Shown in pieces: positions 41,200 through 61,520 of a DNA stretch of 64,000 nt. Below the pieces are notes generated by a model. The model worked only from the letters and a program-made list of their open reading frames with translations, was not told where the DNA came from and made no database searches. A program made the position numbers and the translations under genes. Source of the stretch: Novakomyces olei. Its lineage: Eukaryota. The stretch spans positions 1,612,001 through 1,676,000 of the forward strand of contig JADEYG010000002.1 of assembly GCA_016906335.1 (NCBI GenBank), written 5' to 3'. Each line of letters starts with the position of its first letter. Within the stretch, counting starts at the first letter, position 1.

Positions 41200-41933
41200 C
41201 AAACACAGTAAATCAATTTTATAATGAGATGCCGGTCTCAAACAAACAATATAAAATTCGCCTTGTGCCATATCGTTTGGTCGGATCACGCTGGACTCTG
41301 CGCTGACAGACCACTAGATATCGCCGTTCCTTTACTTATAATATCCCACTCATCCCACGCATGAGATGGGTTTCAATTTTTGACACACGGGTCCGGCCTG
41401 GTAGTTTCTCGACCTCGTCGGCAAGTCTCCAATTGTGAAAAGCAGTCGTTGATGAGGATGTGCTTTCACGATTTTAAATGTATATTCAAGTCGCTTTGGC
41501 GACTAGTAATATATAAATCCTGTGCCAATCTAGAAAGCAATTTGCTTTAGAGACGAACAAAAATTATTCTCCATTTAATTTTAGACAATCAGAAAACTTT
41601 TAGCCAAGTCCTACGGATATTAGGGGTCAATTTGTCTAGTCTAAAGCTTAGATACGACCAACCCCGCTTCAGTTTTGCAAGATCGGCTTCTATGACTTAT
41701 AACCGAGCACTATATTGCTTATCACTACTATATGGAGATATTCTAATAAAATAGATCGGTTTACTCCGTTGTTAACCGACCCAATTCTCGGGTAACAGTT
41801 AAAAGCCGGTAATAAGGCTTATCGCTCGAGAGTGTGTGACAGTATGAAGATGATGTGCATTTCTTTAGACTTCCCGTCGATACATATATAAAGCTGCGTT
41901 GGGTCAATCTTTGGCAGCAGCGAACAGCGCATA

Positions 41934-44900
41934 ATGACTTTGGCTGGTATTCGAGTGGCGATTGACAGAGGTGGCACCTTTACAGATGCGTGGGCTCAGG
42001 TGCCCGGTCGAAAAAGTGATATAGTCCTGAAGGTCCTTTCCGAATGCCCAGATGAATATCCAGATGCGCCTACAGAGTGTATTAGACAGATTCTCGAGAT
42101 CGCCACAGGAACCATAGTTCCGCGCGGCTCTCCACTCGACATTTCATCTATCGAGTCTATTCGAATGGGGACGACGGTAGCGACAAATGCTTTGCTGGAG
42201 CGTAAAGGTGAGCATGTTGCGCTTTTGATAACAAAGGGATTCCGTGATGCTCTTAAAATTGGCAATCAAGCACGGCCAAATTTGTTTGACTTATCGGTAC
42301 AGCGATTGAGCAAACTCTATGAAACTGTTGTGGAGATTGATGAACGCGTTACAGTTGAAGGATTTGCTGAAGATCCGTACCCTGAATCCATTGATCTGGA
42401 TTTGGATCCGGATCTCTATCTTGGTTTGACTGGAGAGGCCATTCGAGTGCTTAAACGCCCTGACTATGAGGTGGTGGAAAAGGACTTACAACATCTTTGG
42501 GCGCTCGGATATCGAAGCGTTGCTATTGCTCTCCTGCATTCATACAATTTCCAGGAACACGAGTTGAAAGTTGCCGAGATCGCACGGAAGCTCGGATTTC
42601 GGGTTTCGGCTTCTTCTGAGCTTCAGGCAATGGCTAAAATTGTCCCGAGAAGCCAATCGGCTGTTGCAGACGCTTATCTCTCTCCGGTTACGGACAAGTA
42701 CCTTGAAAGCTTCCGGAACGGTTTCAAGGGAGAACTACGGGACGAGAATGCAAAAAAGCTTTTCATGAATCAATCAGATGGTGGGCTGATAACGTTTAAT
42801 AAATTCACAGGGCTTCGTGGAGTATTGAGTGGTCCTGCCGGAGGAGTGGTCGGTTTGTCGAAAACGTGTTTTAGTGCGGAAAAAAGAGTGCCAGTTCTTG
42901 GGTTTGACAGTAAGAAGACTTAGCTTCGTTTGAAATTTCTACTTTAGATTTGAATTTATTTATCCCATATTTTTCAAATGGTGTTTTTGTGGTTGACGTA
43001 CCCATATAAGCATGAAACGATTAATTGAATAATAATGTTAGGATCTTATCACACCTGCTAACATCAATCAGTGGGCGGCACAAGTACGGACGTTGCCAGA
43101 TTCTCTGGCAGCCTAGAGCATATCTTTGAAAGCACAATTGCGCAGGTGACAATCCAAACTCCTCAGCTTAATATCAATACAGTCGCGGCTGGCGGAGGCT
43201 CTATTTTGTACTGGGAAAATGGCATGTTTAAAGTTGGTCCACAGAGTGCTGGGGCCAATCCTGGACCTGCATGTTATGGCCGCAATGGCCCGCTCACGAT
43301 TACGGACGCCAATCTGTTTCTAGGCCGTATTGTGCCCGACCTTTTCCCACGGCATCTTGCGGTTGATGTAGTCCGGGCCAAATTTAAAGCTCTAACAGAA
43401 ACGATCAATTCTGAGAAGGCAGGAAAACAAATGTTAACGCCAGAGCAAGTAGCAGCCGGGTTCATTGCTATTGCAAACGCAACAATGACCCGGCCAATAA
43501 GAACGCTTAGTGAGGGTCGTGGATTCGAAACAGCCGCACATAATCTCGGCTGCTTTGGTGGAGCTGGTGGACAGCACGCAGTTGCAATCGCGCGAGATCT
43601 TGGAATCAAGACGGCAATTATCCCAAAATACTCGAGCATTCTATCAGCATTTGGTATGGCCTTGGCTGACGTAGTAGTGGAAAACCAAGAACCGGTAGCT
43701 TACGTCTACAACAGCGAATCTTTGCCAAGCTTAAAGATACGCCTGGACAAACTGCGGGCTAGCGGTGTCAAGGGGCTAACTGAGCAAGGATTTAATGCAG
43801 AGCAAATCGTACATGAGGATTATCTCAACATGCGCTATCAAGGCAGTGATACAGCATTAATGATTAAGCTTGAAAAAGATAATGAAAATGGCAAAGAACA
43901 TATAAAAGAATCAGAATCAGCTAATTCCAAAAACTACGCAGACTTTGCTCAAGCCTTTGTGGCGCGACACCAACAAGAGTTTGGGTTCACACAATCTAGG
44001 GATATTCTTGTCGATGATGTGCGTATCCGTAGTATCGGGAAAGGACTGCAGTTGCAATTAGCTGATCCATTTTTAGAGTTGGAAACTGCCCCACACTTGA
44101 CCAAAAATCCAGATGCGACTCGCAAAGTATACTTTGCCGATGAGGGCTGGGTGGAAACTGCACTTTACTATTTGGAATCCTGTTTGGCTGGGACACGTAT
44201 CTCCGGCCCGGCTATTATAATTGACAAGACCCAAACGATTATAGTTGATCCTTCGAGCTCAGCGACCGTCTGCTCACAGCACGTAATTTTGGACGTTCAT
44301 TCCCCACCAAAGCCCGCTTTGCCCATTGACAAGCCCGATCCGATTCAACTGGGCGTCTTTGGGCACCGTTTTATGAGTGTTGCTGAGCAAATGGGCCGAA
44401 CACTGCAGAAGACGTCAATCTCTGTCAATATTAAGGAGAGACTTGATTATTCTTGTGCTGTTTTTTCCGCCGATGGTGGGTTAGTTGCAAATGCTCCGCA
44501 TATTCCAGGACATCTTGGATCGATGAGCTATGCGATCGCCTGGCAGGCCAGGCATTACAAGCCGGGGGAGCTCGAGCCGGGTGACGTAATTCTCAGCAAT
44601 CATCCAAGTGCAGGCGGAACTCACCTGCCGGATCTAACCGTAATAACTCCTGTTTTTGATCATGAAACGAACCCAACAAGGATCTTATTTTTCATGGCTA
44701 ACCGGGGTCATCACGCTGATATTGGCGGAATTGCACCAGGGTCCATGCCTCCCAATTCGACGGAGCTCTGGCAGGAAGGCGCGGCAGTTGAATCGTTCAA
44801 AATCGTAAAAAAGGGCGTCTTTGATGAGAATGGGCTGTATGAAGTGCTTTATACAATCCCTTCACGTTACCCAGGCTGCAGTGGAACTCGGACTCTACGG

Positions 44901-46184
44901 GATAATGTTGCTGATTTAAAAGCTGCTATTGCCTCAAACAATAAGGGTATTCAGCTGATATCTAGTCTTGTCAAGGAGTACACTTGGCCTGTTGTCGAGT
45001 TTTATATGATGGCGATACAGGAAAACGCGGCCCAGTCGGTGCGCGAGCTTCTAAAGGTCTTTTCTCATCGTTTTGATGGACAAGATCTCGAAGCTATCGA
45101 CTACATGGACGATGGAAGCCTTCTCGCTCTTCGAATCACAATAGATAGCAAGAGTGGCGAAGCCATATTTGACTTTTCTGGAACAGGACCAGAACAGTTT
45201 GGTAATCTCAACTGTCCACCGGCAATAATGTACTCTGGAATCATGGTAGGTCTGCTAGTGTCTTTTTATGCCAAAAGAATCATCAACTGTTTTTTTTTAA
45301 TTACTCTATTGCATCCAATTATTTTCTATGACCCGCTAATAAATCATCAGTACTGTCTACGTTCAATGATTTCGACCGACATCCCTTTGAATCAAGGCTG
45401 TCTTAAACCGATAAAGATTGTTTGCCCAGAAAATAGTATACTTTCGCCGTCTCTGAAAGCTGCAACTGTTGGATCGAATGTTGAAACATCACAGAGGATT
45501 GTGGATTTAATTTTCAAGGCTTTCCGTGCGGCAGCGGCGTCGCAAGGTACCTGCAACAATTTGACTTTTGGCTGTGGAGGACTCGACCCCGAAACGGGCA
45601 AGGAGATTAAAGGCTTTGGATATTATGAGACTATAGCCGGAGGATCTGGCGCTGGCGCAGACTGGGACGGTGAAAGTGGTGTTCATACGCATATCACGAA
45701 TACCAGAATGTCAGATCCAGAGATTTTTGAGAAACGGTACCCCGTAATTCTTCATGAATTTTCGATTCGAAAAGCGAGCGGGGGCAGAGGGCTTCATTGT
45801 GGAGGAGACGGCTGTATTCGGGACATTGAGTTCCGTAGACCGGTCCAAGTGTCAATTCTCTCAGAGCGACGAGTCATTGCGCCTTACGGAATGGCCGGGG
45901 GAGATGAAGGAATGAGGGGAATAAATCTTTGGGTCAGAAACTATGAGGATGGGACTACCAGAACAATCAACTTGGGCGGGAAGGCTACGACACCCATGCA
46001 AGCTGGCGACCGTATAGTCGTCAAAACACCTGGCGGCGGAGGGTATGGGATTGATCCCTCCAAGCCGGTGAAGAACGAAGTGTTTGGAGCTTTCCGTATA
46101 CATGATAAACTGAACCCTGCACAAACGCATTTTCGGGCAGGGGGAAGTGTTGCCAAACAAAACGCTCTAGCGGTCAGCAATTAA
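41934..46184 (+). CDS. OXP1: ATP-dependent 5-oxoprolinase (hydantoinase A+B fusion)
   Basis: IDRGGTFTD, MGTTVATNALLER, LSGPAGG, FD|MGGTSTDV, TVAAGGGS, NIKERLDYSCA, GTHLPD, YETIAGG and TPGGGGYG. Introns at 42910-43071 and 45246-45350. Confidence 0.95.
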
Positions 46185-47094: not shown

Positions 47095-48087
47095 CTATGC
47101 GACACGGTTCGACGTCTCACCCGTTTCCAGGTAGCTAATAACATTTTTCACCGTATCCGCCTCGCTAGAGTACAATGTCCGTTCTGTGAAAGCAGCGTAA
47201 TGAGGATGCATAGTAACTTTGGGACTGCTGAGGATGCGAGGATTGATTACTGGCTCGTGCTCAAACACGTCCAGTCCCGCAAAGGCAACGATTCCCTCAT
47301 CAATGGCATCTGCCAATGCACATTCGTCAACGAGACCACCTCGACCAGCATTTACAAAACGCACGCCCCTCTTCATTTTTTGAAACATTTTCCTATCGCA
47401 CATATGATGCGTTTCCGGCGTCAATGGACACTGCAATGCAACTACATCGCAGCTGCTCACGAGATCGTCCAAGTCTGTGTAGGTCGCCCCGATCTCTGTT
47501 TCCTCCGCTACGCTGAGCTGGCGGCGATTGTAGTATTTAATCTTCATACCAAACGCGGACCCCATTTGCTTTGCCACAATTTTGCCAATATTTCCCATGC
47601 CCACAATGCCAAGGGTGGAGCCCTGCGGATCTTTCCTCAGGTCTAAACCTTCGCGCCAGCCACCGTTGCGCATAACAATCTCGGCCTCCGAAGTGCCACG
47701 GAGCGTAGCCAGTACGAGGAAACTAACAAAAGTGGCAGTTGATTCTGCCGGTGCAAAGGGTGTATTTGCCAATTGCACGCCATTCGCCTTGTGCCACTTG
47801 GAATCGAAATCGTCATAGCCAGCACCAGCACTAGCCACCATCTTGAGGCCGGGCATAAGGCAGCCGAGAAACTCTCCATCGAGCGGGTGGAAACGAGTGA
47901 CCCCGAAAAGAATTATAAGCGCCTCGTACGGCCCATTGGCCTCGTACTGCGTCCGCATAGCCTCCATCATCTCGCTGCGCGTGCCCTTGTGCTCGAGACA
48001 GTCTAAATGTGCCAACTGCTGTAGGTGCTTGACTTCCGCTTCAGCCAGCGTGGGAGGGCGAAGCGCTAGTACCTTGCGGACCGTCAT
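47095..48087 (-). CDS. D-isomer-specific 2-hydroxyacid dehydrogenase (glyoxylate reductase-like)
   Basis: GAGYD, ANTP, GIVGMGNIG, YYNRR, CPLTPET, VNAGRG, GLDVFEHEP and HPH. Confidence 0.93.
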   Translation of the reverse strand: MTVRKVLALRPPTLAEAEVKHLQQLAHLDCLEHKGTRSEMMEAMRTQYEANGPYEALIILFGVTRFHPLDGEFLGCLMPGLKMVASAGAGYDDFDSKWHKANGVQLANTPFAPAESTATFVSFLVLATLRGTSEAEIVMRNGGWREGLDLRKDPQGSTLGIVGMGNIGKIVAKQMGSAFGMKIKYYNRRQLSVAEETEIGATYTDLDDLVSSCDVVALQCPLTPETHHMCDRKMFQKMKRGVRFVNAGRGGLVDECALADAIDEGIVAFAGLDVFEHEPVINPRILSSPKVTMHPHYAAFTERTLYSSEADTVKNVISYLETGETSNRVA

Positions 48088-48449
48088 TTTGACAGTGGTT
48101 CTCCTACGGCTGAGTTTGCCCCAATAGACGTACTGCTCTCAGTGTTATTGAGCCGCTTTTGCTGGTTATGCTCGAGTAGATCTTTACAAGTCTTAATCAA
48201 ATCTCTGTTTGACCTTAAACGATCGTGTACATTTATTTATCTCTGTCGGCTCCCACGCAAGCAATCAGGCGAGGCGCAAAATAGTTACTTAAAAAGGGGC
48301 ATCGGAGTTTAACCGCACATCATGTGCCTTAAATATAGCGGGATCAGCACGTAGCATGGCTGGCGTGTAATTTGATTTGATAAAGTTAGATGCGTAAACA
48401 GAGATAAAGTAGGACTGGCATCGCCTGCTGTTTGTTTATTCAATGCTTT

Positions 48450-48463
48450 GCGGATCATTACCG
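48450..48463 (+). promoter_or_regulatory. CGG-N7-CCG putative Zn2Cys6 site
   Basis: GCGG-ATCATTA-CCG, ~365 bp upstream of the dehydrogenase start. Confidence 0.55.
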
Positions 48464-49404
48464 GTGTATTATCAAAAACTTTAGGACATGGCAATAAAAA
48501 AAGAAAAAGAAAACAAAAAGACAATAATTTCTGGACTACATGGGAATCAGTCCATGAAGAAATGTAAAGTCTTCTATTCTTGCTTGCTGAATAGCTGAAT
48601 CAAAGGATGCCCAAGGCTAAGAGTTTAGAAGTATATTTAAGTAATAAGCAGTTCATTGTTTCGCAAAACATTTATTAATGCCTTAGAACTGCAATTACAA
48701 ATTTAAACCAGCTTTACAGCACTGCAATTGTGATGAAAGTCTATCCGAAACTCTAACCCAGTAATAAAATGGTTCCTAAAATAAAGTTGATAGGTGAATT
48801 ATTAGCATGCAGAAGCAGATGCAGGACGATATATGTAATCAGTTTTCAATTTAAAATCTCTTTATTTTGCCTCTCTCTCCCATTGGTTTTGGTTTAAACC
48901 AATTCCAAAAACAGTTTAGTCTATTGACCTGTTGCAATCGCTTAAAAAATGCATGTTTCTTGTTAATCGTGTGACAGAAAATTTAGAATCTGCTTTGAAT
49001 TGCAGTAACTTTATTTGATTATGTTTATTTGCTCCAGAGCTATTTTTTTGCTCTTAAAAGAGGCATTTCAAACAGCTTCATCCAGCTGATTTATTTTTTA
49101 CAATATTATTTGTAAATTTGGCGAAATCAAGGCAAACTCAGAGCTGCAGGAAGACATACACTACATTATTAATGAATAATTTTATTAAAATATTTGAGTA
49201 ACTATAATATTGATTAAACAATTACCGTAGGCTTATCAATTTTTGCCAGGTAGATTGAAGTAGGGACCAGGCGTCAGAGTTTATGTGTGAGCTGCTTCCT
49301 TTTCACGAAAGACCAAATTTCCTGATCAGTTTTGATTCAAATTTGATCAACTCTGCTCTTCTAAGCTGAATCGTTTCTAACTTATAAATATTTATGCAGT
49401 GAAT

Positions 49405-51274
49405 TTAACCCGCTAGGTAGCCACGAATTCTAACGTACCATGGCTCAGTAACGCGTTTCTCTAGCCACTGAATCTGAGCCATAGTAAGGGGTCGACGGCC
49501 TGTATAAATGTCCATTTTGTCATAAGTACGAAAGTTTTGTCGATACACTAGCTTGTGACAAGCATACACAAACAAGAAAATTGGAACACCGAGGTACTGG
49601 CGGAAAAAGGCGTTTGCGCTTGGGGAGCCAGTCAACGGCCACCCGCTTATAATTCCGGTTCCAATCAGCATGAGAAAACTGCCAATTCCCGTTACTATAG
49701 TACTAACGGGATAGAGACTGCGATAGGACCATTTTTCGGTCAGCACAGGATCCTTTTGTACCTTTAAAGCTTTCCGGAAACGATAGTGACTCAAGCCAAG
49801 CGATATCCAGCCTATGAAGAAAACTGTACTCGACATTGAAGAAAACCAAACAAAAACGGTGGCGCCTCCAGCAGAGCAGTTTATGTACGACCAAAGGATG
49901 CTTAACAGGGCTGAGATAATAAGAGAGTTACGCGGTCTCCCACGGCTATCGAGCTTTGCAAACCACTGCGGAAACATATGTGAGCGAGCCATGCCGGCCA
50001 TGAGACGGCTGCAGATATACACACCCTCAGAACCAGTGGTCACTGTGCAAAGAAGAATTGTTGCGTTGATTATATGGTCCCAAACCGGGATTCCAGCGTG
50101 TTTAAAAGCAATGACAAACGGAGATTGACTTGAAGAACTTCCACCAAGCAGATCGGGAGAATTTGCAGCTGTATATTTAGTAATTTTGCTAACAATTTAT
50201 AGTTTAGAATTTTAGAATTCAACTTTTTAGTCAGTACTTACGAACAAGAACAGTAATCATGATGACGCCGAGTATAAAAATAAAAATTAAACGCGCAAAC
50301 ATGCTTTTTGCTGCACGTGGAAGGCTTTTCCGGACAAAATTGGACTCTTCCGACATTATAGCAAGAATCAACTGATCACCGGTAGACCAAACAGCTTGTG
50401 AAAATGTTTGGCAAAATCCACGAAACCCATTTATGAAAGCCGGATGGCCAATCCAATTTTCACCACCAACTGCGTGACCATGTGGACCTGCTCCCGCAGC
50501 AACCGCGATGCAAGCAATTAATAGCGCAAATACGAAGAGGACCTTCCATAGCGACGTGAAAAATTCGTATTCTCCAAACCATTCGTTGGGCAATAAATGG
50601 ACAGAAAACATAAGTATCAAAAAAATAGTCACTGTCTGTCAACAAAGGCAAGGAACATATATTCTTCTTACTCCAGGCCGCAAGTGGCACACTAGAGGTC
50701 CAGTAGTCTATTGTGATGGCAAAGGCAGAACTTTCAGCCCCAACCACTGTGCTCCAAGCTAAGATTTCACAGAAGCCTGATATTAGCAAAGATGGTATAC
50801 GACTTTATGGAAGAACAACAAGGACAGCAAAGTAGCATTAGCTTACCAATAGCAAAGCCCCAACTAGGATCAATAAAACGATGAGAATAGTCAATAAAGC
50901 CGCCAACCACAGGCAGTACGCATCCCATTTCGGCGATCAAATCTAAGGAGCATAGAACCACGGCCATCACACACATGTAACCAATAATCATGTTTGCTGG
51001 TCCGCCCAAATGCAATGCTCGGCCCGTCGAAATAAAGTATCCACTTCCCAAATGGCCACCCAGGGCTACCATTGAAGTATGGCGTGCCTTGAAGCCTTGA
51101 CGGTAGGCATTTTTTGGGGCTTCCCAGTTCTCTAATGTAATTTCAACGACATGGTCTGAAGTTAATAGATGCTCCTTAAAATGTCTTTTTACCCTCAGTT
51201 TCAGAAGTTTTTCCAGGGCTTAAGGCTTTGCCTTCTCCCTTCTCTTGAACAATTTTCGAGTCTGAGCTGTCCAT
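49405..51274 (-). CDS. Amino-acid permease (APC/YAT family), multi-exon
   Basis: ARHTSMVALGGHLGSGYFI, AEM..LPV.GGF..Y..RFIDPS.GFAIG, FGEYEF, SSPFVIAF..AGI, SRLM..MA..P..FAKLDSRGRP and FFRQYLG. ATG at 51274. Confidence 0.92.
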
Positions 51275-51746
51275 GCTTATGTCCTGATAATGACTAATTT
51301 TTTGCATAATTTATATAAGAAGACATCCCACGTACGCGCCTTATCTTTATCACAGCCAGACATGAACCCATTACTTATAAGTGGTAAAATGCCGAAATTG
51401 CCAAGGAAGATTAACTATTGCTGAGCATGAAACCATCACTGGAAATTCGCCCCGAGGGAAAATTTACCGTTAGGCTTAGCCTTGTCTTTAGCAGGGCAAA
51501 TTAAAATTACCAGAATTATGGTCTCAGCTTTTTAAGCACTTATCCGGAAAGGCGAGCATGAACACTCGTGGTAGAGAGAGGTTTTTATTTTGCCATGCAG
51601 AAAGTACTTGTGAACAAAGCAAAACCCTGTAATAAGTCGAGCCCAATTAAAGGTGTAGGCTATTTCAGTCAAGCCTTTGCGCATTTTTACATTAGACGCG
51701 TTCTTATGCAAATTTCACGGAAGTCGTACTTTTACTAAAATTGCTA

Positions 51747-53684
51747 TCAAATTTCAAATAGCTGACTAAACTGGGCTGCATTAGCCAAAAAAAGATCCAT
51801 CGTTGATTCGTCAAATTCGGGAGATTCTTCAGCAGAAAAGCTCTGGGAGGTTTTGTGGTCATTCATTGTTCTTCTTTTGATCTTGTTTAAAGACATTTGA
51901 CTTAACTCTTCGAATGTCTTCAGTACCCTATTAGCCCTTGGCCATCGCTCCGACATGGCTATTAGAACATGCTTGCATGCTCCGATGTTCTCAAAAACGT
52001 CAAAGAGAGTATATGTCTCGGGTTCTATGCAAACACAGTAGCATACTGTAACGCCGGCAACAAAAACAGCATGCAAAGACTGGCAGTTTACGTGGAGTAT
52101 GCCGCTCATATGCAAAGCCTTGTACATTTTACAGGATTCTGCAGCAGACAATGCACAATGTGCAAAAGCCTTCTTCTCACTAGTATTGCTGACAAGCGCC
52201 GGCCTGTACAAAAGAATGACTGTATTATGATATTCCAGATCAAACCAGTATTTGAAGGCGTATACGCTAGTGATATCCTCAAAAGAAGGCAGTCCTGACT
52301 TCCAGGTATCAAGCTTCTCCATGAAAATAGACTGTAAGCTTTGGCATGTCTCAGTGTCGAGGCAATGACATACTCGGTACAACGCAGAGATAATCTCGCT
52401 TTGGATCTGGCGCAACCTGATAATATGAAGAAACGACGTTGTGAATTTTACAAGAGGGTCTGTTAGCTTTCGTTCTGAGTACAAATGTAGGCAGCTCATG
52501 ACCACGTTATCAGGCAGAGCGTACACGTCCAAATCAAGAGGCAACTTGGCGTCGATATCATTTTCTGATATGCAAAAAGGTCGTCCCGTGCTTATTGCTA
52601 CTGATCTGTCGAGACAGTACGCAGACCAGAAAATGCACCGTCGGTGCTGCGCGTGTCGAATCGGCATATCATCTGACTCTGAAACATGCCGATGCAGAGC
52701 TGTCTCTATACAGAGCCGCATAGCTATGCCAGAAAGTTCCCACGCAGAAGTTCCCACCTGTGTACTAAGGCAGTACGTGGCTAACAAAAGCACAGCTTGC
52801 ACGCGCACAAGATTACCTTGGAGCAATGTCTCATTTAAATTTTGTAGTGCCACCGACAGATAGTAGTCTGCCTCAGCGTTACTAGTTTTCGCAGCGTCAT
52901 GCTCCTCCTGACGCCCAATAGCACAAATCATAAATGTGAAGAATAGTGCTACTGCACTGCTGGCGCAGTCGCCAATAGCAACTTGCACGATGTACCGGTC
53001 CACCTCAACGAGGTGCAGGAACGGGAACCGTCTGTGGAAAGTCTTCAGGTAGACGTCAAAGTAGTGCCGTATCAGCTCAAGGCTGGGCACTTTTGTATCC
53101 CACCAAGAAGCAGAAAGCTCTTGCTCAGAGCCTGAGCCGATACAAAAAGTCGCGTCTTCTGCCTCACCGGGCGTTGCAATATACTTTCGCAGGCTTTGGG
53201 CCAGTATAATACCGGACGACGACCCAACGTAGTATCGCTCCTTACTTGAATCTAAGCAGAGCCAAGCAATGTCGGAAGTGACGGAATTGATACCGGAATC
53301 CAGCACTTGAGACGCTTGCTTCCGCTGCTGTGCCGCAGCTGCATTAGCCGCTACAAGGCCAGAGCCAGACGATTCCTCGAAAACGCCATCGTCATCGTCA
53401 AGATGGTCCCCGGCAGCCTCGGGGTAGACTGAGCGTACAAGGCTTTCTAGATAAGCCACCCGGCTTTCCAAGTGCTCCGTATACTGCCGTGGCACATCAC
53501 GGCCAAGAAGCTTGTCCTGATAAAAACAGGGCACCCCTGAGTGTAAACATCTTTTGCACGTTGGCAAGGTTCCATCACACCGACGCTTAGTCTTTCTGCA
53601 TCTGGAACAGGCAATATGGCCGGCCTGCCGTCCAATTCTAGCGCCGCTTTCTTTGCCCTCCGCAAAGCGCTTATCGCTGGACAT
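51747..53684 (-). CDS. Zn(II)2Cys6 transcription factor, Ppr1/UaY-like
   Basis: ACSRCRKTKRRCDGTLPTCKRC....VPC, the linker GRDVPRQY..HLESRVAYLE, YVGSSSG, AMRLCIE.ALH and RRCIFWSAYCLDR..GRP. Confidence 0.93.
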   Translation of the reverse strand: MSSDKRFAEGKESGARIGRQAGHIACSRCRKTKRRCDGTLPTCKRCLHSGVPCFYQDKLLGRDVPRQYTEHLESRVAYLESLVRSVYPEAAGDHLDDDDGVFEESSGSGLVAANAAAAQQRKQASQVLDSGINSVTSDIAWLCLDSSKERYYVGSSSGIILAQSLRKYIATPGEAEDATFCIGSGSEQELSASWWDTKVPSLELIRHYFDVYLKTFHRRFPFLHLVEVDRYIVQVAIGDCASSAVALFFTFMICAIGRQEEHDAAKTSNAEADYYLSVALQNLNETLLQGNLVRVQAVLLLATYCLSTQVGTSAWELSGIAMRLCIETALHRHVSESDDMPIRHAQHRRCIFWSAYCLDRSVAISTGRPFCISENDIDAKLPLDLDVYALPDNVVMSCLHLYSERKLTDPLVKFTTSFLHIIRLRQIQSEIISALYRVCHCLDTETCQSLQSIFMEKLDTWKSGLPSFEDITSVYAFKYWFDLEYHNTVILLYRPALVSNTSEKKAFAHCALSAAESCKMYKALHMSGILHVNCQSLHAVFVAGVTVCYCVCIEPETYTLFDVFENIGACKHVLIAMSERWPRANRVLKTFEELSQMSLNKIKRRTMNDHKTSQSFSAEESPEFDESTMDLFLANAAQFSQLFEI

Positions 53685-54620
53685 TTAGAGATGACTTTTG
53701 ATACAGGCGCTCGACAGAAAAAGATAGCCGTTCATAGTAATATTTATGTTACTATTTTTTGGAAAAATAGTAAAATTCCAAAACAGGATATGTACGAAAC
53801 TCGCGTGAAAGATGCGGGCGAAACGAAATTATACAGTACTTTTGACAAACAATTTTGCGCTTGAGAGTTTTCCGGTCTAAAGCGAGTCAATTGCCTTTGT
53901 GCACAAGCTGTTTGAATATTTTTTTATTTTCAAGGATTATTTCTCTAAACAACCTACACTCGAGACGTGCAAGACAAACGTTTCTTTAATGTCCAAAGTG
54001 CTATTATTATAAGCCTGCATTTGGGATTTAATCTTCTTTGCGCCAAAACAGCAATCAAAGGTAGAAGAGGCTTACGTGCCATACTCATTGCGTCTGCAAC
54101 TAGAAATAGCAAAGTAGAGCGAAAAACATGATATACAATGGCATATATATGAAATATAGACAGGAAATAAAACATGGCTAAACAGATGAACACTAATTCA
54201 TATTTACCTGCTGCTTATTTGCGAGCTCCAGCTCTCGACAACTAGGCTTGTTTCTCTTACTGTCTGGTAAACTAAAAATCTATTTATGCTAGCGCTTTAA
54301 TACGTGCCGCAAGCGGCGTACCTCATGGTAAAACTCAAATCTGGTCTACTCAACGGCAGATCGAGAAATCTAAAGAAAAATTGCAACGACACATGATCAG
54401 TTTTGTTGACCATTTTGACATAATCTTCTTCTTTTATGCCAAGTAACACATACGCAAACTCATGAACTATAGCTTTTGTCAAACAATAAGCATTTGTGAA
54501 TTAGGTAAATCCTGAAGATAGCAAACTGCGGCAAGAAGTCGAGCCATGCTCAAATGAAAAGATAATCGACAAGCAAAGGACAACGCTATTCAGCATTGAA
54601 GCAGGCTTCAACTTAATATT

Positions 54621-55472
54621 TTAAAGCAAAATTTCCCCCTTTGTGTCGTATACCATCTGTTCAAAATGCGGCTGAAACTGTGTATGCAGGCAAACAGAGC
54701 CTCCGTGGCGCGCCGTGAAACCAGCAAATTCATCGTCAATAATTGATTTCTTCAAACCATTTGCAGCAGCGGCTTCAACTTTGAGCTGCGTTTCGCAGCA
54801 TCTTTCAATGCAATTATATAAAAATGCAGCCTCTTCGACCGTATGACCTACCGTTAAGAGACCGTGGTTCTGAAGAAACAATACGCTTTTGTCTGCTAAA
54901 GCTTTTGCGATTGAATCACTTTCCTCCGCACTAAGAACAACACCTGTAAACTTGAAAATTGCCTGCCGGTTGTAAGCGTAGCAAGCATCTTGGCTCAGCA
55001 TTTCGAGCGGGAGCCCAAAAGTTGACCAAGCTCGACCATTTGGAGAATGGCAATGGCATGCTGCGTTGACATCGGGACGAGCTCTGTGAACAGCCGCGTG
55101 AATAAGAAACCCAGACTTGTTGACTTTTGCCGTACAAGTCTTATCGACCAAATTACCTTCCTCATCAACTAAAACCATATCTGAGGCCCTTAAAACCCCA
55201 AATGGTCGCGCGTACGGATTTATCCAAAAATGGTGTGGGTTCACGGGGTCCCGCAACGAAATATGACCTGAACAGCCTTCACTAAACCCTAGCTTATCCC
55301 ACAATCTGAAAGCAGCCGCCATTTTTTCCTTTTGGTCTTTGCGTGCTTCAAAGGGATTAGAAAAGATTTTTATTTGGTGAAGCTCTTCTGTCGGACTAGG
55401 GTTTTTGGTCGCCGCCTCAATAGTACGAGTCTTCAGAGCCGGCTTGGCTTCAATCGTAACCGTATTGCTCAT
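54621..55472 (-). CDS. Class II aldolase/adducin-family protein
   Basis: EG.SGHISLRDP, FWINP, GFLIHAAVHRARPDV.AACHCHS and LQNHGLLTVG.TVEEA (Zn-binding His). The probable ATG is at 55472. Confidence 0.92.
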   Translation of the reverse strand: MSNTVTIEAKPALKTRTIEAATKNPSPTEELHQIKIFSNPFEARKDQKEKMAAAFRLWDKLGFSEGCSGHISLRDPVNPHHFWINPYARPFGVLRASDMVLVDEEGNLVDKTCTAKVNKSGFLIHAAVHRARPDVNAACHCHSPNGRAWSTFGLPLEMLSQDACYAYNRQAIFKFTGVVLSAEESDSIAKALADKSVLFLQNHGLLTVGHTVEEAAFLYNCIERCCETQLKVEAAAANGLKKSIIDDEFAGFTARHGGSVCLHTQFQPHFEQMVYDTKGEILL

Positions 55473-55696
55473 TCTTTGTTTATTTCTTCTCTGCGACTCG
55501 ATCACCAGCAAATCAACAAGGCTGCAAGATTTTGCAAAAACTAGATCTTGACCGTTAACCAGACGACAATTGGACTATATTGATTCTCAGATCCAATGTC
55601 TTATCGCGCACATATATATATCTATATAAATACTTGAGCACGGATCGATAAATCATATGTTTAATCGTTCATCTCACATCCATACATAATTTTTAT

Positions 55697-55750
55697 GCGG
55701 GATAACCGCGCAGGAAATGATAGACAAATACGTCTGCGGGATATCACCGC
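55697..55750 (+). promoter_or_regulatory. Two CGG/CCG inverted sites in the aldolase-cupin divergent promoter
   Basis: GCGG-GATAA-CCGC (N5, 55698-55708) and GCGG-GATATCA-CCGC (N7, 55737-55749). Confidence 0.6.
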
Positions 55751-55890
55751 AAACGCGCCACAAATAAATTGATAATAATATTAAAAGTAAAGATAAATTG
55801 TAGAAAGGAAGCATAATAAAACTAAAAAAAAAAATTAAAACTCAAATAACACTCGAGCAAAGGGTAGTTTGCACGCATTTTAGCTGAATC

Positions 55891-56241
55891 ATGGAGCATC
55901 TGCATAATTGCCTTGCTCGTCCAATTAAAGGAACATCATATTTGGCTGCTGCTGACATGAAATTTAAGCTAATTAAGCCCGGGTATTGGAGTGCAGGACT
56001 GATGGAGGATAGCCCGAACTTTAAATCTATGCTCATGAAAATTGAGCCTGGAGCTCAGGGCGAAAGGCACTGGCACGCTGGGTTATACGAACATATTTAT
56101 GTTCTGGATGGTGAATTTTCAGACACAGAGAACAAATACAAAAAGGGAGACTATGTCGTTCGTGAACCAGGCTACCCACACCAAACTAAATCGGCGGAAG
56201 GCGCAACAATACTAGTTGTCCTCACTTCGGGACCGTTATAA
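55891..56241 (+). CDS. Small ChrR-like cupin protein
   Basis: Cupin motifs IEPGA....HWH.GLYEHIYVLDG and GDYVVREPG.PH. Confidence 0.85.
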   Translation: MEHLHNCLARPIKGTSYLAAADMKFKLIKPGYWSAGLMEDSPNFKSMLMKIEPGAQGERHWHAGLYEHIYVLDGEFSDTENKYKKGDYVVREPGYPHQTKSAEGATILVVLTSGPL

Positions 56242-57162
56242 TTTCTCAACTCGGGAAATATGAAGGCGCTCCTCGGTTTACCAATAACAATATCGCGTGG
56301 GATTCTGGAGTTTCATAATCTATACCTATTTCGCATAGCATAAACTATACTCGGATAGAAATAGAACAATTCGCTGCAGTATTAATCAATTCACATTCGC
56401 ATTCCAAAAAGAAGTCCACGCCCAGGAGCCACTCAATTCGTCAGACTGAGAGTGTTAGATAGCACCTGATTAATGACTCGTGCTGTACCATTGCTTATCG
56501 CATCCAAATCATGATCTCCAGTTGCTATATCAGGCTTTGACGCCTATTATGCCAGTTTGGGCGCCCGCTTTAGCCGCCTCCCACGCAAGATATCAGCTAA
56601 AAACAATATCACACTAAAAACCCTAGGGTGAAAAGTATGAAGATAACGCACAAGTGCACCACAAATGCTTCATATTACTTCATAATTCTTGATACCAGCA
56701 GGCTCTCACAAGCTAAATGAGCGTGAAATCTAACGACTGGTTAATTCTTCGAATTGTATCAATGCTAGAAATTCTGAACACTGTTTCAAATTCAACAATT
56801 ACGCACGTACAAATGCAAATATGCTCTACGATGTTGGATTTGGCCTTATCCTTGATAGGGGAGTCGTTTTTGTTAAGAGGTTTGGTAGGCGATATCTGCC
56901 CCCAGTGCGTGCTTGATCTCGCTCGTTGGCAGCAAGACCACGACTACACAGTGTGGTTGTGAAATTCTGTTACCGCGTCGTATTCAATAAAGCAAAAAGT
57001 TGCACTATAAAGAAAAGCATACATACAAGTTTATAATTAATTGTCGCTAGTATGATAAAAACAATTCCTATTGCCGTCTAAATTTAAAACCAATCTAACG
57101 TTAACATAACGATACTTGGCCAATTTGAGACCATCTAAACTGCAATAAAGCTATATAGGGAA

Positions 57163-57927
57163 CTATGCCTGTGAAATCTGGCTTCGAGGCAACTTGCGTA
57201 ATTCTGCGTTTACGTCCGGACCATAGCGGACACGGGTCAGACCACTGTAAAAAAATTCAGCCAGCGTGTTCGCGTCAAACACAGGCAAGCCAGTTGCGTC
57301 CTGAATAGCCAAAGCATACGGTGGCAATTGCGTGCATTCGAGAAGAATAGCACCAATGTTTCCATGCTCACGAATTAGAGTGTTGGCCAGGCCTACAAGC
57401 TCTTTAGCTCCCTCTTCATAGTCAATGGGGCCAGAGTCTTTAATTTGAGTTGAAATTGCACCTCCATAGGGGACTCCAATGACTGGCGTACTCGGATCTC
57501 CGTGGACGGCATCAAAGTGCACCTTTGAAAGAGATTCTGCACGATAAGTAATAATGCCCACTTGCTTACTGCGTGGGATAAAAGTCCTGATGAGCGGTAG
57601 TTGCTGTAAACTGCTTGTTATGACGGGAACAGATAGTGCGTCTGCCAAATATGGCTGAATCTGTGCCAAAAATCCACATGATGTATAAATTCCGATGCAT
57701 CCGTCCTTCTCCACCATTTCTTTTGCAAGAGCGACAAATTCGTTAACAAATTCTTGATCAAACTTATTTGGGTTAACCACCGCTTTAACAGATGCATTCT
57801 TTAATGCTCTTGTGACAATAGGGAAGTCGAACGTAGCCTGAGTCCCAGTATCACCAGGGATTCTATGAATGTTGATGTTCAACGTGATTATGCCTAATGG
57901 GCCAGACGCAAAACCCGCGCGAGTCAT
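57163..57927 (-). CDS. Asp/Glu/hydantoin racemase-superfamily protein
   Basis: LGII, RIPGD.G...TF.FP, both catalytic-type Cys motifs (TSCGF and LECTQL), PVITSSL and TGLPVFD. Confidence 0.85.
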   Translation of the reverse strand: MTRAGFASGPLGIITLNINIHRIPGDTGTQATFDFPIVTRALKNASVKAVVNPNKFDQEFVNEFVALAKEMVEKDGCIGIYTSCGFLAQIQPYLADALSVPVITSSLQQLPLIRTFIPRSKQVGIITYRAESLSKVHFDAVHGDPSTPVIGVPYGGAISTQIKDSGPIDYEEGAKELVGLANTLIREHGNIGAILLECTQLPPYALAIQDATGLPVFDANTLAEFFYSGLTRVRYGPDVNAELRKLPRSQISQA

Positions 57928-58111
57928 AAGGGATTGTTATATTTGACTTTTATGGCGTGCAAAAGCTGAATGCCGAAAAACCACTTGTCAGGGCAACCAA
58001 AGTTTCGATTTAAACGACACTGGCTCTATTGAGGCAGCAATTAAGCCCACATTTATATGATATAAAACTATGCCAAGCAGGCGTTTTATCGCAATTCTTA
58101 TCATCACGAAT

Positions 58112-58125
58112 GCGGCGAATCACCG
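58112..58125 (+). promoter_or_regulatory. CGG-N7-CCG putative Zn2Cys6 site
   Basis: GCGG-CGAATCA-CCG, ~186 bp upstream of the racemase-like gene, next to TTTATC/CTTATC GATA sites. Confidence 0.55.
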
Positions 58126-58677
58126 AATTCTCAGTGTGTGTGATAACAGTATAATGGGGTAGGAATTATTATTATGCTACATGAATATCGTAACAGAAAC
58201 GGAAATAAATTTATGTACCATGAATATATTGAGGACTTATCGTATAACGGATAGTTCTGAGGAAAATGTCTTCTGAAAAAGCTCTGACGGAAATGCTTTT
58301 AATGAAAACATTTTGGTTTGTCGGATCTCGTAAAAAAATTACTCAATGCCGTGATTTTTTCGTCATCATTGTTGATCGGACTCTGTCCCGATGTTCATCT
58401 ATATCTATTATCAGAAATCTGTCCCCAATGCTACTTGTAGTTTTATGGCTATGTCCTTGAGGTGCAGCACATGATCTCCAAACATTATATCCGCTGACGT
58501 TGTAATTATTCTGTCAGCGCACAGATGCCGCTAAGTCGTAAAAATCAGACAAAAGATGTATGATGGGATTCACAAAGTGGAAAGCTATATTGCGAATTCC
58601 ACACTTTTTTAGCAAAAATGCTTGTTATTCTACGAACCACAAATACTTTAACGTTGCTAATTCGAACTGTATATCGG

Positions 58678-60108
58678 CTAAAGTCGAGATGGTATTTCAT
58701 TTAACACTTTTTCTCTTGGCTGATTGTGCAAAATGCGACTGGTAGAAAGAGGCTCCCCAATTTTGTTTTTGACTTTTTCTGCCTGCGTGTAGGATCGCCA
58801 CTTGTATTTTTTTGTGAAAATTGTCTCCTTTCCCTCCAGCACATCAACAACATGCCGACCAACCAGTGGGAAAAAAGAAAAGCCCCGACCGGAGTCGCCG
58901 GTAGCCACAAGTAGACCATGAAAATTCGGAACCCAGTCGATAAGAAATTCATCGTCCATAGAGTCTGCATACCAGCAAAGTCGTGTTTTGACAAGCTTCA
59001 CATCCGGCGAACAAAGCTCCGGCAGATTATCACGTAAAAAATTGTGGATGTAAGAAAGGCTTTTATCAGGAATCTCTTTGATGGCGGGAACAGTAGATTG
59101 TGTACACGGCGTCGACACCAAGTTACCGTTACTTCCGTTTTGTGGGTTGAGCCATTTTATCCCCTTGTACCCAATTTTGACACGGCCGTCTTTTGTACGA
59201 GGGAATCCATAAAGTGCACCAGTTTCGCCTTCCCGGTAGCGATAAGTAAAGGGCGGGAAGTTGTCTGAGCTGAACCGATTCCAAAGATCTCTTCGTGATT
59301 TGGGGAGCTGGAAAATGCAAACTGAGCCACCAGTTGCTTCCACACACTCATTCATGCTCACAACAGATGGCGTCCAGGCCCCCAGGCAACAAATAATGGT
59401 TGATGCCTGATGGCACTGGCCATCAGCTGTCCGGATGCCCACTATTTGACGACGGCCGCGACTATCGGAAGCGGCATCAAACAAAAACTCCGCGAATTCT
59501 CCCCTTTTAGAACCCATAATTGTACGTGCTCCGCCCTTGCGGACGAGATACAGGGCAAATGTGCAAGAATCGCTTGCCATTGAGACGCCGCCCGACAAAT
59601 CTAGCAATCCATTTTGTGGGAAATTGCGCTTTCGGCGAGTTAGTGGATCCGTTTTCATTGGGTTAATGCCGTCTGCCAAAGCACGGCTAAGGTCATCCTT
59701 GCTGGAAAGATCGTATACGTTTGAGCGTTTGTGGGACAAAATATCCAAATCTTCGGGGGGCAGATCTTTGTCGCTGATAATGGCCGTTCCACACTCAACC
59801 AAAAGCTTTGTATCCTGCGTCAGAGGCGACGGTAGGTCATGATATTTAGGAATGTCGCTATTCCACTTTCTCCAAGCGTTCAAACACTGCATACCAAAGT
59901 CGCGATAGATTTCTTGTGTCTGACTTTCAGCACGGAAAAGCTTATTATAGTCGCTTGAGGCACTATCTGCACCCTTGTCAAAATCATAATGGTCGAATCG
60001 ATCAAAGATCGTAACGTTCTTGTAGCCACGCTCGATCAAATGCAATGCTGTACTAAGCCCAAACACGCCGGCTCCAAGAATAATGATAGACGTATCTTTA
60101 CCCTCCAT
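58678..60108 (-). CDS. FAD-dependent amine oxidase (sarcosine/pipecolate/fructosyl-amine oxidase family)
   Basis: ILGAGVFGLSTA, SASSDYNKLFR, GAWTP, LYGFP, RLCWYAD (flavinylation Cys) and FLIDW..LLVATG.SG.GF.F. The probable ATG is at 60108. Confidence 0.9.
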   Translation of the reverse strand: MEGKDTSIIILGAGVFGLSTALHLIERGYKNVTIFDRFDHYDFDKGADSASSDYNKLFRAESQTQEIYRDFGMQCLNAWRKWNSDIPKYHDLPSPLTQDTKLLVECGTAIISDKDLPPEDLDILSHKRSNVYDLSSKDDLSRALADGINPMKTDPLTRRKRNFPQNGLLDLSGGVSMASDSCTFALYLVRKGGARTIMGSKRGEFAEFLFDAASDSRGRRQIVGIRTADGQCHQASTIICCLGAWTPSVVSMNECVEATGGSVCIFQLPKSRRDLWNRFSSDNFPPFTYRYREGETGALYGFPRTKDGRVKIGYKGIKWLNPQNGSNGNLVSTPCTQSTVPAIKEIPDKSLSYIHNFLRDNLPELCSPDVKLVKTRLCWYADSMDDEFLIDWVPNFHGLLVATGDSGRGFSFFPLVGRHVVDVLEGKETIFTKKYKWRSYTQAEKVKNKIGEPLSTSRILHNQPREKVLNEIPSRL

Positions 60109-60284
60109 AAGGAAGAATTTATCCGAGCGCACGCCTTCTAAAGTCGATGTAAACTGTTTGTCTTGACAAGCATGAAGTCGTACATCTTTTTATAATGGTT
60201 AGAATATAATGCTAAAATACAAATGCTTACAAGTTTAGACTACATATCTTATCGGAGATTTTGTGTGTTGCGTGGGCCATTTGC

Positions 60285-60299
60285 GCGGGATAATACCGC
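60285..60299 (+). promoter_or_regulatory. CGG-N7-CCG putative Zn2Cys6 site
   Basis: GCGG-GATAATA-CCGC, ~178 bp upstream of the oxidase start. Confidence 0.6.
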
Positions 60300-60599
60300 A
60301 ATTTGTATGTGGCGAAATTAACCACTTAGCAATACAGCTGCTATGTATACGTTAAACTTATTAAATTATAAATTTAGATATTTATGAAACACAGTTATAT
60401 TTTTCAATTTGTGCACAAGAATTCTATCCGTTAAAATGCTATTTAAATGCGTATGCTTATGCTATAATTTATGCTTTTCTCTTCTTTCCATCTTTTCCGT
60501 CGCCTCCTGAACCTTGACTGGGAGAAAGCTCGAGCTTCGCAATGCTCTCCTTAATGATGTTTCCCATTTCGTCGTATAGGTCTTCTCCTTTTCCCTCAA

Positions 60600-61050
60600 G
60601 ATATGTAGAAAGCACGTATAACACTTTCTCAAAACGAGAGCCAAATTACGAATATGTCTAGTCGGAGCTATCGCCACGAGCATATCGGTCAAACACAATT
60701 CCGTAAACTATTCCAATGCCTTCCCAGAATTGCGAGACATTGGCCCGTGTTTATATTCAATGTAGGTATTCTGTCGTCAGCTCCGTTTATACAAATATCA
60801 CCGGCGACATTGAGGCACTTTATACTTCCTCCGTGACCTGGTCTGAGTTTACGGCTCCCGGCGACTGTTCAGATTCCAGACGCGGAGTCCACCTTGCTAG
60901 GAGCTCGGAATAGCCATAATTTAATCCTTCATATTGACTCAAAGCACTTGGGATGTAAGTGCATACATCACATGGCGGCTGTTTCCTGTATCAAGGTTCC
61001 AGGCACCAATGTTTTGCCTCGCGCTATGCGCATAAGAATCGGGTATGAGA
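60600..61050 (-). pseudogene. Degenerate Cdc4/Fbw7-like WD40-repeat pseudogene
   Basis: Minus-strand translation: IGAWNLDTGNSRHVMYALTSQVL*VNMKD*IMAIPSS*QGGLRVWNL, GHGGSIKCLNVAGDICINGADD, NINTGQCLAILG, IVYGIVFD. These are WD40 repeats with stops and frameshifts. Confidence 0.75.
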
Positions 61051-61480
61051 TAAAAGTTGCCTTCCTGGTCTGAGCATCATGAATCAGCCAGTCCACCTGA
61101 TCAGTGGCAGGTCAAAACGATGGACGGATGCCGGCACTCGAAAGCAACCCGCTCTTACATCGTTTCTTTCGTCTAAAGCCTAATTCCAGCTAAAACGCCA
61201 TTCCAACAAATAATGCTGTATCAGTCACGACTTCCCCTCACTGTCGACATATTTATTGCCACCTATCGTCGCCATGTCACCGCCACTGCCACAGCCATCT
61301 CTATATTACTCCAGCGCTCATACAGTCCCTTCGCCACTGGTACTGCCAGGCGACGGAGTTGGAATCGCCAGCAGTAACTGGAATTGTGGAGGCAGGGACT
61401 CCGTCAAAATATATTACTTGATTTCTGTCCGTTCAATACGCGAGGCTCTTGATTGCACATGATGGGTTGTTTCGCTATTG

Positions 61481-61520
61481 GTGAATTAATGGAATCAATA
61501 GTGAATTAATGGAATCAAAA
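61481..61520. repeat. 20-bp direct tandem duplication
   Basis: gtgaattaatggaatcaata followed by gtgaattaatggaatcaaaa. Confidence 0.85.

Follow-up and report, generated by a model that had tools for sequence, protein, structure and literature searches.

A shared CGG-N7-CCG element in the promoters of five clustered fungal enzyme genes

We identified a palindrome-like word of 13 to 16 letters, built from inverted CGG triplets, in the four promoters that serve five clustered enzyme genes. Across the window, the whole 64-kb stretch of DNA that was analysed, the pattern CGG-N7-CCG occurs 11 times, and five copies fall within the 5′ regions of these five genes, a placement that is non-random, with one naive control not significant. 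The best reading of the motif is that the five enzyme genes are co-regulated and probably switched on together. Our favoured interpretation, held at about even confidence, is that the copies are upstream activating sites of a zinc-cluster dimer, probably the Zn2Cys6 factor encoded within the cluster. Each zinc module of such a dimeric activator would read one CGG triplet, with a short coiled coil setting the distance between the two modules, and the sites would tie four promoters and five enzymes (a dehydrogenase, a TqaM/NovR-like aldolase-fold protein, a cupin, a racemase-family protein and an FAD amine oxidase) to a pathway that probably degrades an imported amino-acid-like nitrogen compound. 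The proposed binder is the factor encoded mid-cluster (51747-53684), which would be activated by the pathway substrate and, because its own promoter lacks a site, is proposed to be made constitutively.

Positions and sequence of the shared element

Two of the five sites lie in the promoter of a D-isomer-specific 2-hydroxyacid dehydrogenase gene (47095..48087, minus strand, 330 aa): site 1 (48303..48315, minus-strand reading tgCGGTTAAACTCCGa) is 216 bp and site 2 (48451..48463, plus strand, tgCGGATCATTACCGg) 364 bp upstream of the ATG. Site 3 (55737..55749, plus strand, tgCGGGATATCACCGc) occupies a 418-bp divergent promoter common to a class II aldolase/adducin-fold gene (54621..55472, minus strand, 283 aa) and a small cupin gene (55891..56241, plus strand, 116 aa, Cupin_7/Cupin_2), at a distance of 265 bp from the start codon of the aldolase-like gene and 142 bp from that of the cupin gene. 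Site 4 (58113..58125, plus strand, tgCGGCGAATCACCGa) is 186 bp upstream of the ATG of an Asp/Glu/hydantoin-racemase-family gene (57163..57927, minus strand, 254 aa, NCBIfam PRK07475), and site 5 (60286..60298, plus strand, cgCGGGATAATACCGc) is 178 bp upstream of the ATG of an FAD-dependent amine oxidase gene of the DAO family (58678..60108, minus strand, 476 aa). No enzyme gene in the interval 47095-60108 is without a site, and the distances to the ATG range from 142 to 364 bp. Site 5 also sits 8 bp inside position 60306, the boundary at which multi-copy DNA takes over from the single-copy contig of run X1. An earlier, sequence-only reading had listed four GCGG-containing sites, and all four are real (GCGGATCATTACCG at 48450-48463, GCGGGATATCACCG at 55736-55749, GCGGCGAATCACCG at 58112-58125 and GCGGGATAATACCG at 60285-60298), but it missed the fifth exact copy at 48303-48315; its estimate of 140-365 bp to the start codons agrees with measured distances of 364, 265, 142, 186 and 178 bp, and the promoters it described as AT-rich have a G+C content of 34-40%.

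The four 5′ regions, 1,918 bp in total, hold all five cluster copies of CGG-N7-CCG, and with all 11 window copies mapped none falls in coding DNA of the cluster. Seven inverted CGG pairs lie within 500 bp of start codons, five with N7 spacing, one with N8 (58377) and one with N5. The N5 pair, also described previously (CGGGATAACCG at 55698), spans 55698..55708 on the plus strand (tgCGGGATAACCGcgca), begins 39 bp before site 3, scores 13.1 bits and has TGCGGGATA and CCGC in common with sites 3 and 5; this pair may represent a copy that is weak or has decayed.

The five sites yield the consensus TGCGG-NNN-A-W-Y-A-CCG, in which CGG, CCG and the spacing of exactly seven letters are invariant. All five are inverted repeats and none is a direct CCG-N7-CCG repeat; outside the triplets, G at -1 and A at the spacer centre occur in 5/5 sites and T at -2 in 4/5. 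With inverted triplets, a fixed spacer and promoter placement, the element would be of a known kind, the inverted-CGG upstream activating site of the Gal4/Ppr1/Put3 type. It is also asymmetric, with TG before one CGG only and spacer letters 4-7 in one orientation in all four sites listed earlier. The "same orientation" previously ascribed to those four sites stands when judged by the NNNAWYA spacer and the G at -1, but the copies at 55737 and 60286 read GCGG on both strands; on the minus strand, site 1 matches the extended consensus.

The asymmetry allows an improbable alternative, in which one zinc module sits on TGCGG and linker or arm contacts reach A-W-Y-A, as in Pho7 or Hap1, so that the distal CCG would be auxiliary and N7 would not be a true dimer spacing. 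The flanking TG, the co-oriented spacer and an N5 variant that retains TGCGGGATA and not the spacing are consistent with this arrangement, and conserved letters beside or between the triplets (here A-W-Y-A and the 5′ TG) are a likeness to both proteins. Pho7, as described in a passage of PMC6265462, occupies a single CGG as a monomer, with the site TCG(G/C)(A/T)xxTTxAA and a footprint of 14 bp, whereas both inverted triplets are retained here at exactly N7 in every site; Hap1, in a passage of PMC10954478, uses direct repeats. Two further points count against this alternative: predicted heptads directly follow the linker of the embedded factor, as in dimeric family members, and the spacer conservation that would support asymmetric contacts is statistically weak, coming from five sites.

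Placement against chance

We give little credence to the reading that four AT-rich promoters share this word by coincidence and that it has no regulatory role. The number of copies in the window is itself unremarkable, with 11 CGG-N7-CCG against 6.8 expected and 11 reached in 7 of 100 shuffles, which is compatible with coincidence; their distribution is less so, as five of the eight non-coding copies fall in 8.2% of the non-coding DNA (binomial test, P=1.7e-4). We compared the four promoters with dinucleotide shuffles, using a CGG-dyad class chosen beforehand (three orientations, N0-N15), and 0 of 5,000 shuffles produced a CGG/CCG dyad in all four, the maximum being three of four in 33 shuffles. 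A naive test over all trinucleotide dyads that reach 4/4 promoters and are rare in the background was not significant, with 329 of 1,000 control sets yielding an equal result, and a raw Poisson dyad score was not distinctive, low-complexity controls matching it. Both results leave room for chance, as does a background drawn for all motif statistics from one 64-kb window. An unbiased weighted 16-mer seed search recovered GCGGGATATCACCGCA as the best common word with a score of 79.4, and none of 120 control sets, each built from non-coding tiles of this window, reached that value (maximum 76.0, median 70.4). The match extends past the six CGG/CCG letters to the G at -1, the T at -2 and the central A, and all enzyme genes of the interval carry a site at a distance typical of activating sites, both of which argue against coincidence. 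In a matrix scan the five sites score 20-24 bits and the next best match anywhere 13.9. Similarity between promoters stops at 17-21 nt, and the shared word is therefore not a product of promoter duplication.

The cluster, its pathway and its regulator

The enzyme genes surround an amino-acid permease gene (49405..51273, minus strand, several exons, with the ATG at 51273 read from sequence) and the Zn2Cys6 factor gene (51747..53684, minus strand, 645 aa). The matrix scan found no convincing site for the permease gene: a degenerate TGGTAAAATGCCG noted earlier is present at 51382-51394, 109 bp upstream, but falls below 7.3 bits, is absent from the 30 best matrix matches and is unsupported as a site. 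The 5′ region of the factor gene (53685-54620) has no site either, and the lack of the motif at two in-cluster genes counts against the favoured interpretation. The wider proposal of a regulon of this factor fared well as regards a real motif, confined to the 5′ regions of enzyme genes and marking a co-regulated set; the link to the factor is one of position, and suggests it as the probable binder.

Functional links among the enzymes come from related loci. The aldolase-fold protein has as closest solved relatives TqaM (E 1e-63) and the decarboxylase NovR; the racemase-family protein has cysteines C84 and C198 invariant across 25 sequences; and the FAD oxidase is closest among solved structures to fructosyl amine oxidase (E 1.6e-29), with homologues named by their sources as sarcosine, pipecolate or saccharopine oxidase. 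On four bacterial contigs (L001, L010, L027 and L076) neighbouring genes encode a D-2-hydroxyacid dehydrogenase, a DAO-family FAD oxidase and a racemase-family homologue, and on the two contigs of sufficient reach, L001 and L010, the trio lies behind a branched-chain-type ABC importer. From these bacterial operons we infer that the cluster enzymes form one pathway. A 5-oxoprolinase/hydantoinase gene (41934..46184, plus strand) adjoins the cluster and has no N7 site; bacterial neighbourhoods suggest that it too may belong to the pathway.

The embedded factor contains a Zn_clus domain (residues 25-59, E 8e-10) and a Fungal_trans domain (210-462, E 7e-28) and is at most 29% identical overall to any database protein. 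Its best solved relative is Ppr1 (1pyi, E 1.8e-13), with which it aligns without gaps over query residues 23-84, covering the zinc cluster, the linker and the start of the coil. The two have the linker motif G-[RK]-D-V-P-R-x-Y in common, and in the factor predicted heptads read from the sequence (L72/V76/L79/V83/V86) come right after this Ppr1-like linker. Linker length is identical in 13 of 16 aligned relatives, and the DNA-binding domain is also colinear with proteins labelled "positive regulator of purine utilization".

Spacing and the identity of the binder

According to a passage of PMC10954478, the CGG pairs recognised by zinc-cluster proteins can be inverted, direct or everted, and the proteins bind them as coiled-coil dimers; a passage of PMC4245848 states that the linker sets the length between triplets. 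The present element resembles the targets of Ppr1 of S. cerevisiae, which acts at URA genes, and of UaY of A. nidulans in its inverted CGG triplets, its AT-rich spacer and its presence in promoters that serve a small set of metabolic genes. Ppr1 sites reportedly have N6 spacing (attributed to Marmorstein & Harrison 1994), as UaY sites are said to have (attributed to Suarez et al. 1995); the candidate sites here are one letter longer, at N7, and carry TG-CGG on one side, in contrast to the symmetric TCGG...CCGA of those factors. None of the 13 CGG-N6-CCG sites of the window lies in the cluster (46185-61642). The earlier caveat that the factor has a linker of Ppr1 length is borne out by the gapless 1pyi alignment and this absence of N6.

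These observations bring in a second zinc-cluster protein as a less probable but substantial alternative: the N7 elements would be functional and would co-regulate the five genes, and the binder would be one of the two further Zn2Cys6 factors encoded in the window (35356-37198 and 39059-41199), a factor from another locus, or a heterodimer. In that case the embedded factor would have retained an N6 preference of the Ppr1 type, exercised at sites like TCGG-TTTACT-CCGT in front of the oxoprolinase gene, where a single CGG-N6-CCG (41757..41768, plus strand, aTCGGTTTACTCCGt) lies 177 bp upstream of the ATG at 41934. The gapless alignment with Ppr1, linker motif included, and a linker length constant in relatives that include the purine-utilization-labelled ones are in keeping with this alternative; Gal4, however, aligns equally gaplessly to the same stretch and binds at N11, so that linker length alone cannot decide spacing. 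With 13 such sites in 64 kb, the N6 site at 41757 does not exceed what chance would give. L004, a yeast contig and the sole one of 80 with a match to the fungal-type factor, encodes a full-length homologue (28% identity, E 3e-65) divergently adjacent to a racemase-family homologue, an arrangement that favours a link between this factor and the pathway. Around the homologue lie two N6 sites, one of them reading TCGG-N6-CCGA, and no N7 site, again as expected if factors of this type prefer N6; but such a pair is unusual to a modest degree, as 6 of 200 shuffles also yield two, and may be bound by a Ppr1-type regulator of the yeast itself. As for the two other factor genes of the window, they adjoin different enzyme genes, and the extended motif is missing from their promoters, whereas the embedded factor gene is the sole regulator gene between motif-bearing promoters.

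If the embedded factor is the binder, as we favour, a factor colinear with Ppr1 and UaY, whose specificity is reported to be stable across yeasts, would have moved its half-site spacing to N7 with linker length unchanged and would also have gained the asymmetric TGCGG...AWYA-CCG, a scenario we advance tentatively. The likeness to other systems is partial. As at GAL1-GAL10, inverted CGG pairs lie between divergent genes, here in the aldolase/cupin promoter, and the predicted binder would likewise be a pathway-specific zinc-cluster dimer; unlike Gal4, the regulator is clustered with its presumed targets, and the linker sequences of the two are unrelated. AcuK/AcuM of Aspergillus and Talaromyces, a heterodimeric factor pair that controls gluconeogenesis, have the same 7-bp spacer between CGG-type triplets, in direct repeats there and in inverted repeats of a local cluster here. 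The string CCGN7CCG occurs in PMC11373862 and PMC12719309, and the N11 spacing of Gal4 is given in a passage of PMC10954478.

The motif offers a concrete and inexpensive way into a fungal pathway that is uncharacterised and comprises a regulator, a permease and five enzymes; three of the enzyme types are grouped in bacteria as well. Should the embedded factor bind these sites, the combination of N7 spacing with a Ppr1-like linker would be a useful exception to the rule by which linkers fix spacing; and if the spacing shift is true, it would be a natural re-specification that makes the zinc-cluster "linker code" directly testable through a few linker residues. Otherwise, the element would be an ordinary cluster-specific promoter element, in an arrangement that is ordinary save for a spacing one letter longer than that used by relatives of the neighbouring regulator.

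A CGG-N7-CCG element in the promoters of the enzyme cluster

We assigned the genes in and beside the 46185-61642 cluster with Pfam and NCBIfam. The minus strand encodes a D-2-hydroxyacid dehydrogenase (47095-48087), an amino-acid permease with introns (49405-51273, ATG taken from the sequence), a Zn2Cys6 transcription factor embedded among the enzymes (51747-53684), a class II aldolase-fold protein (54621-55472), an Asp/Glu/hydantoin-racemase-family protein (57163-57927) and a DAO-family FAD oxidase (58678-60108), and the plus strand encodes a small cupin (55891-56241) and, to the left of the cluster, a 5-oxoprolinase (41934-46184). All four GCGG-N7-CCG promoter sites of an earlier sequence-only reading were recovered, at 48450, 55736, 58112 and 60285, together with a fifth exact CGG-N7-CCG missing from that list, at 48303, which shares its promoter with the copy placed there at 48451. 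The sites lie 216 and 364 bp from the start codon of the 2-hydroxyacid dehydrogenase gene, 186 bp from that of the racemase-like gene and 178 bp from that of the FAD oxidase gene, and one site is shared by the divergent aldolase-like and cupin genes at 265 and 142 bp from their start codons. The window holds 11 copies of CGG-N7-CCG in total; the 5 in the cluster are all 5′ intergenic, and an exact search of the window found none in coding DNA of the cluster.

Once 48303 is taken from the minus strand, all five sites fit the alignment (T)GCGG-NNN-A-W-Y-A-CCG, in which 5/5 have G at −1 and A at the spacer centre, and 4/5 have T at −2 and an A as the seventh spacer letter. Since flank and spacer letters are conserved on the aligned orientation, the site is asymmetric. 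The four listed sites do share one orientation as claimed, although those placed at 55737 and 60286 read GCGG on the opposite strand too. Asymmetric recognition of TGCGG plus spacer letters, of the Pho7/Hap1 kind (PMC6265462), would suit the conserved flank, but we consider it improbable. The N5 variant proposed at 55698 is present in the sequence, and TGCGGGATA...CCGCA is common to elements at 55696, 55735 and 60284 (family D2). The degenerate TGGTAAAATGCCG noted at 51382 before the permease exists as well but was rejected as a site by a matrix scan, which returned no convincing N7 site before the permease, the factor's own gene or the oxoprolinase gene. A CGG-N7-CCG at 38440, in a promoter between a 2OG-oxygenase gene and a second factor gene, was likewise set aside, being without the flank and spacer consensus. 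Similarity between promoters ends at 17-21 nt, so the promoters are neither duplicates nor carriers of a common mobile element, ruling out both as origins of the shared word.

Against a background consisting of the single 64-kb window, it is the placement of the sites that is remarkable and non-random, not their window-wide number, which is unremarkable (11 versus 6.8 expected, with at least 11 in 7/100 shuffles). The four 5′ regions span 1,918 bp, or 8.2% of non-coding DNA, yet contain 5 of the 8 non-coding copies (binomial P = 1.7e-4). In 5000 dinucleotide-keeping shuffles of the four promoters, scored for 48 CGG/CCG dyad types (inverted, everted and direct, N0-N15), no shuffle carried any dyad type in 4/4 promoters and 33 carried one in 3/4. 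An unbiased weighted seed search returned GCGGGATATCACCGCA as the best common 16-mer, at a score of 79.4; 120 control sets, each made of four non-coding tiles taken from this window, topped out at 76.0 with 70.4 as their median. In a scan with a matrix derived from the five sites, these reach 20-24 bits and the rest of the 64 kb stays at 13.9 bits or less; the top matches outside the cluster, at 13080-13095 (13.1 bits) and 20342-20357 (13.9 bits), fall far below the five sites. Two controls were contrary: the top dyad, GCG-N8-CCG, had a raw Poisson score of 1e-9 to 2e-9, a statistic we dropped because control tiles with low-complexity runs score alike, and an all-trinucleotide-dyad test requiring 4/4 sequences was not significant, being equalled by 329/1000 control sets. 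The case for the motif is therefore the CGG class fixed beforehand combined with the extended match, not the six letters alone. Coincidence, which would accord with the window-wide count and these two controls and from which the placement and class tests point away, is in our judgement a very unlikely source of the shared motif.

We also compared four sequencing runs with the window. Runs X1 and X2 had 0 differing letters over the listed pieces and, being identical to the window, are uninformative for footprinting or comparison, while X3 and X4 covered scraps of the window only. The X1 single-copy contig ends at 60306, 8 bp past the FAD-oxidase site; X1 depth over 60306-62000 is 2-5x the single-copy level, and 60098-60306 occurs in X1 a second time in diverged form (209 bp, 22 letters different, 17 gaps). 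The depth jump and second copy indicate that the oxidase promoter abuts or belongs to repeated DNA, which includes a fungal-type protein kinase gene from 61643 onward.

Cluster enzymes and their gene orders in metagenomic contigs

TqaM and NovR are class II aldolase-fold enzymes whose reaction is an oxidative decarboxylation and not that of an aldolase. The structures nearest to the 54621-55472 protein are TqaM (E 1e-63) and the decarboxylase NovR, so by sequence comparison its 'aldolase' annotation is probably misleading. Fructosyl amine oxidases are the nearest solved structures to the FAD oxidase (E 1.6e-29), and a sequence search found no relative of the racemase-family protein among solved structures. 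In database searches the factor reaches no more than 29% identity, the FAD oxidase 42% and the racemase-family protein 45%; sampling of the organism's lineage in the protein collection seems poor, or else the cluster seems to diverge fast. No conserved fungal version of the cluster was found among these database matches (at most 29-45% identity). In one species, a homologue of the racemase and one of the oxidase each lie on a contig of 1,160,136 bp, an equality of length that is no proof of adjacency.

Scanning metagenomes with an alignment of racemase-family homologues (A1) yielded 80 loci, of which only L004 matches the fungal-type factor; the longer annotated loci bear bacterial transporters and regulators. 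Four contigs (L001, L010, L027 and L076) share the gene order DAO-type FAD oxidase, racemase-family protein, D-2-hydroxyacid dehydrogenase, preceded in L001 and L010 by a branched-chain (Liv-type) ABC importer. An oxoprolinase homologue lies nearby in four contigs (L009, L062, L065 and L073), and an aldolase homologue is adjacent in one (L047). These bacterial gene orders indicate that three of the enzyme types that bear the motif in the fungus recur together as a module acting on an imported amino-acid-like compound. We infer that the substrate may be of secondary-amine or D-amino-acid type and would be oxidised to a 2-oxo acid before further processing. The racemase-family protein of the bacterial trio belongs to NCBIfam PRK07475, named 'hypothetical protein'; the trio looks like an uncharacterised catabolic operon and could give this protein a function.

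The embedded factor and the spacing of its candidate sites

Among all solved chains, Ppr1 (1pyi, E 1.8e-13) is the best match to the first 100 residues of the embedded factor. The caveat in the sequence-only reading that the factor appears to have a linker of Ppr1 length was borne out by a gapless alignment that begins at the first cysteine, spans the linker (CFYQDKLLGRDVPRQY versus CVSLDPATGKDVPRSY) and enters the coil; heptad positions after the linker fall at L72, V76, L79, V83 and V86. Linker length is equal in 13 of 16 aligned relatives, including some named at source 'positive regulator of purine utilization'. A homodimer fold test with two copies of residues 18-100, folded without the alignment, scored 0.28 against a mark of 0.32, which speaks neither for nor against dimerisation. 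Ppr1 and UaY sites have N6 spacing, and the cluster contains none of the window's 13 CGG-N6-CCG copies; the start of the oxoprolinase gene is preceded at 177 bp by an N6 site, aTCGGTTTACTCCGt, an occurrence within chance. According to PMC4245848, the linker specifies the distance between triplets. Gal4 (N11) is also gapless over the same stretch of the factor, so linker length alone is not decisive for spacing.

A distant relative is found on L004, an intron-poor, yeast-like contig of 38% G+C that has a factor homologue of 740 aa (28% identical along its full length, E 3e-65) with equal linker length. In the segment 5365-13568 this gene and a racemase-family gene stand side by side in divergent orientation, with two MFS transporter genes next in line, an order that supports a lasting link between the embedded-factor family and the racemase-family gene. 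L004 has no CGG-N7-CCG and two CGG-N6-CCG, at 11448 and 11826 (the second TCGG-N6-CCGA), both in the promoter between the MFS genes, a count reached in 6/200 shuffles; the neighbourhood thus shows the expected N6 and not N7. The factor-racemase intergenic region of L004 has no inverted CGG pair. CCCGATAAG words are repeated there, and GATAAG is a nitrogen-regulation GATA word. The segment looks like an allantoin/purine-type nitrogen module, which fits the report that C. albicans Ppr1 controls allantoin breakdown (PMC5588923).

Another zinc-cluster protein or a heterodimer could bind N7 while the embedded factor keeps N6. The L004 sites, the missing N6 sites in the cluster and the presence of two further Zn2Cys6 genes within 20 kb (35356-37198 and 39059-41199) speak for this arrangement, which we regard as possible but rather doubtful. 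The further genes neighbour an Amidohydro_2 gene (33881-34981), a 2OG-Fe(II) oxygenase gene (37363-38382) and the oxoprolinase gene, in what reads as a string of small regulator-plus-enzyme modules. With about even confidence, we read the five elements as candidate sites of activation by a zinc-cluster dimer, the likeliest binder being the embedded factor. Such a dimer would drive the five enzyme genes jointly from four promoters. At the aldolase and cupin genes one of the candidate sites lies between the two divergent core promoters, in GAL1-10 fashion. Since the factor's own promoter is without a site, the factor would be produced constitutively and its activity switched by an inducer.

The inverted N7 element, spelled CGGN7CCG, CGG-N7-CCG, CGGNNNNNNNCCG or 'CGG N7 CCG', was not found in the literature, where bracketed spellings are unsearchable, and this silence is weak evidence of novelty. 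For triplets spaced or separated by seven, the literature yielded nothing beyond a review on AcuK/AcuM, whose CCG-N7-CCG is the nearest N7 case but a direct repeat. An inverted-CGG element specific to a cluster beside a Zn2Cys6 gene is a well-known arrangement; the residual interest here is that a Ppr1-type linker and N7 sites do not match.
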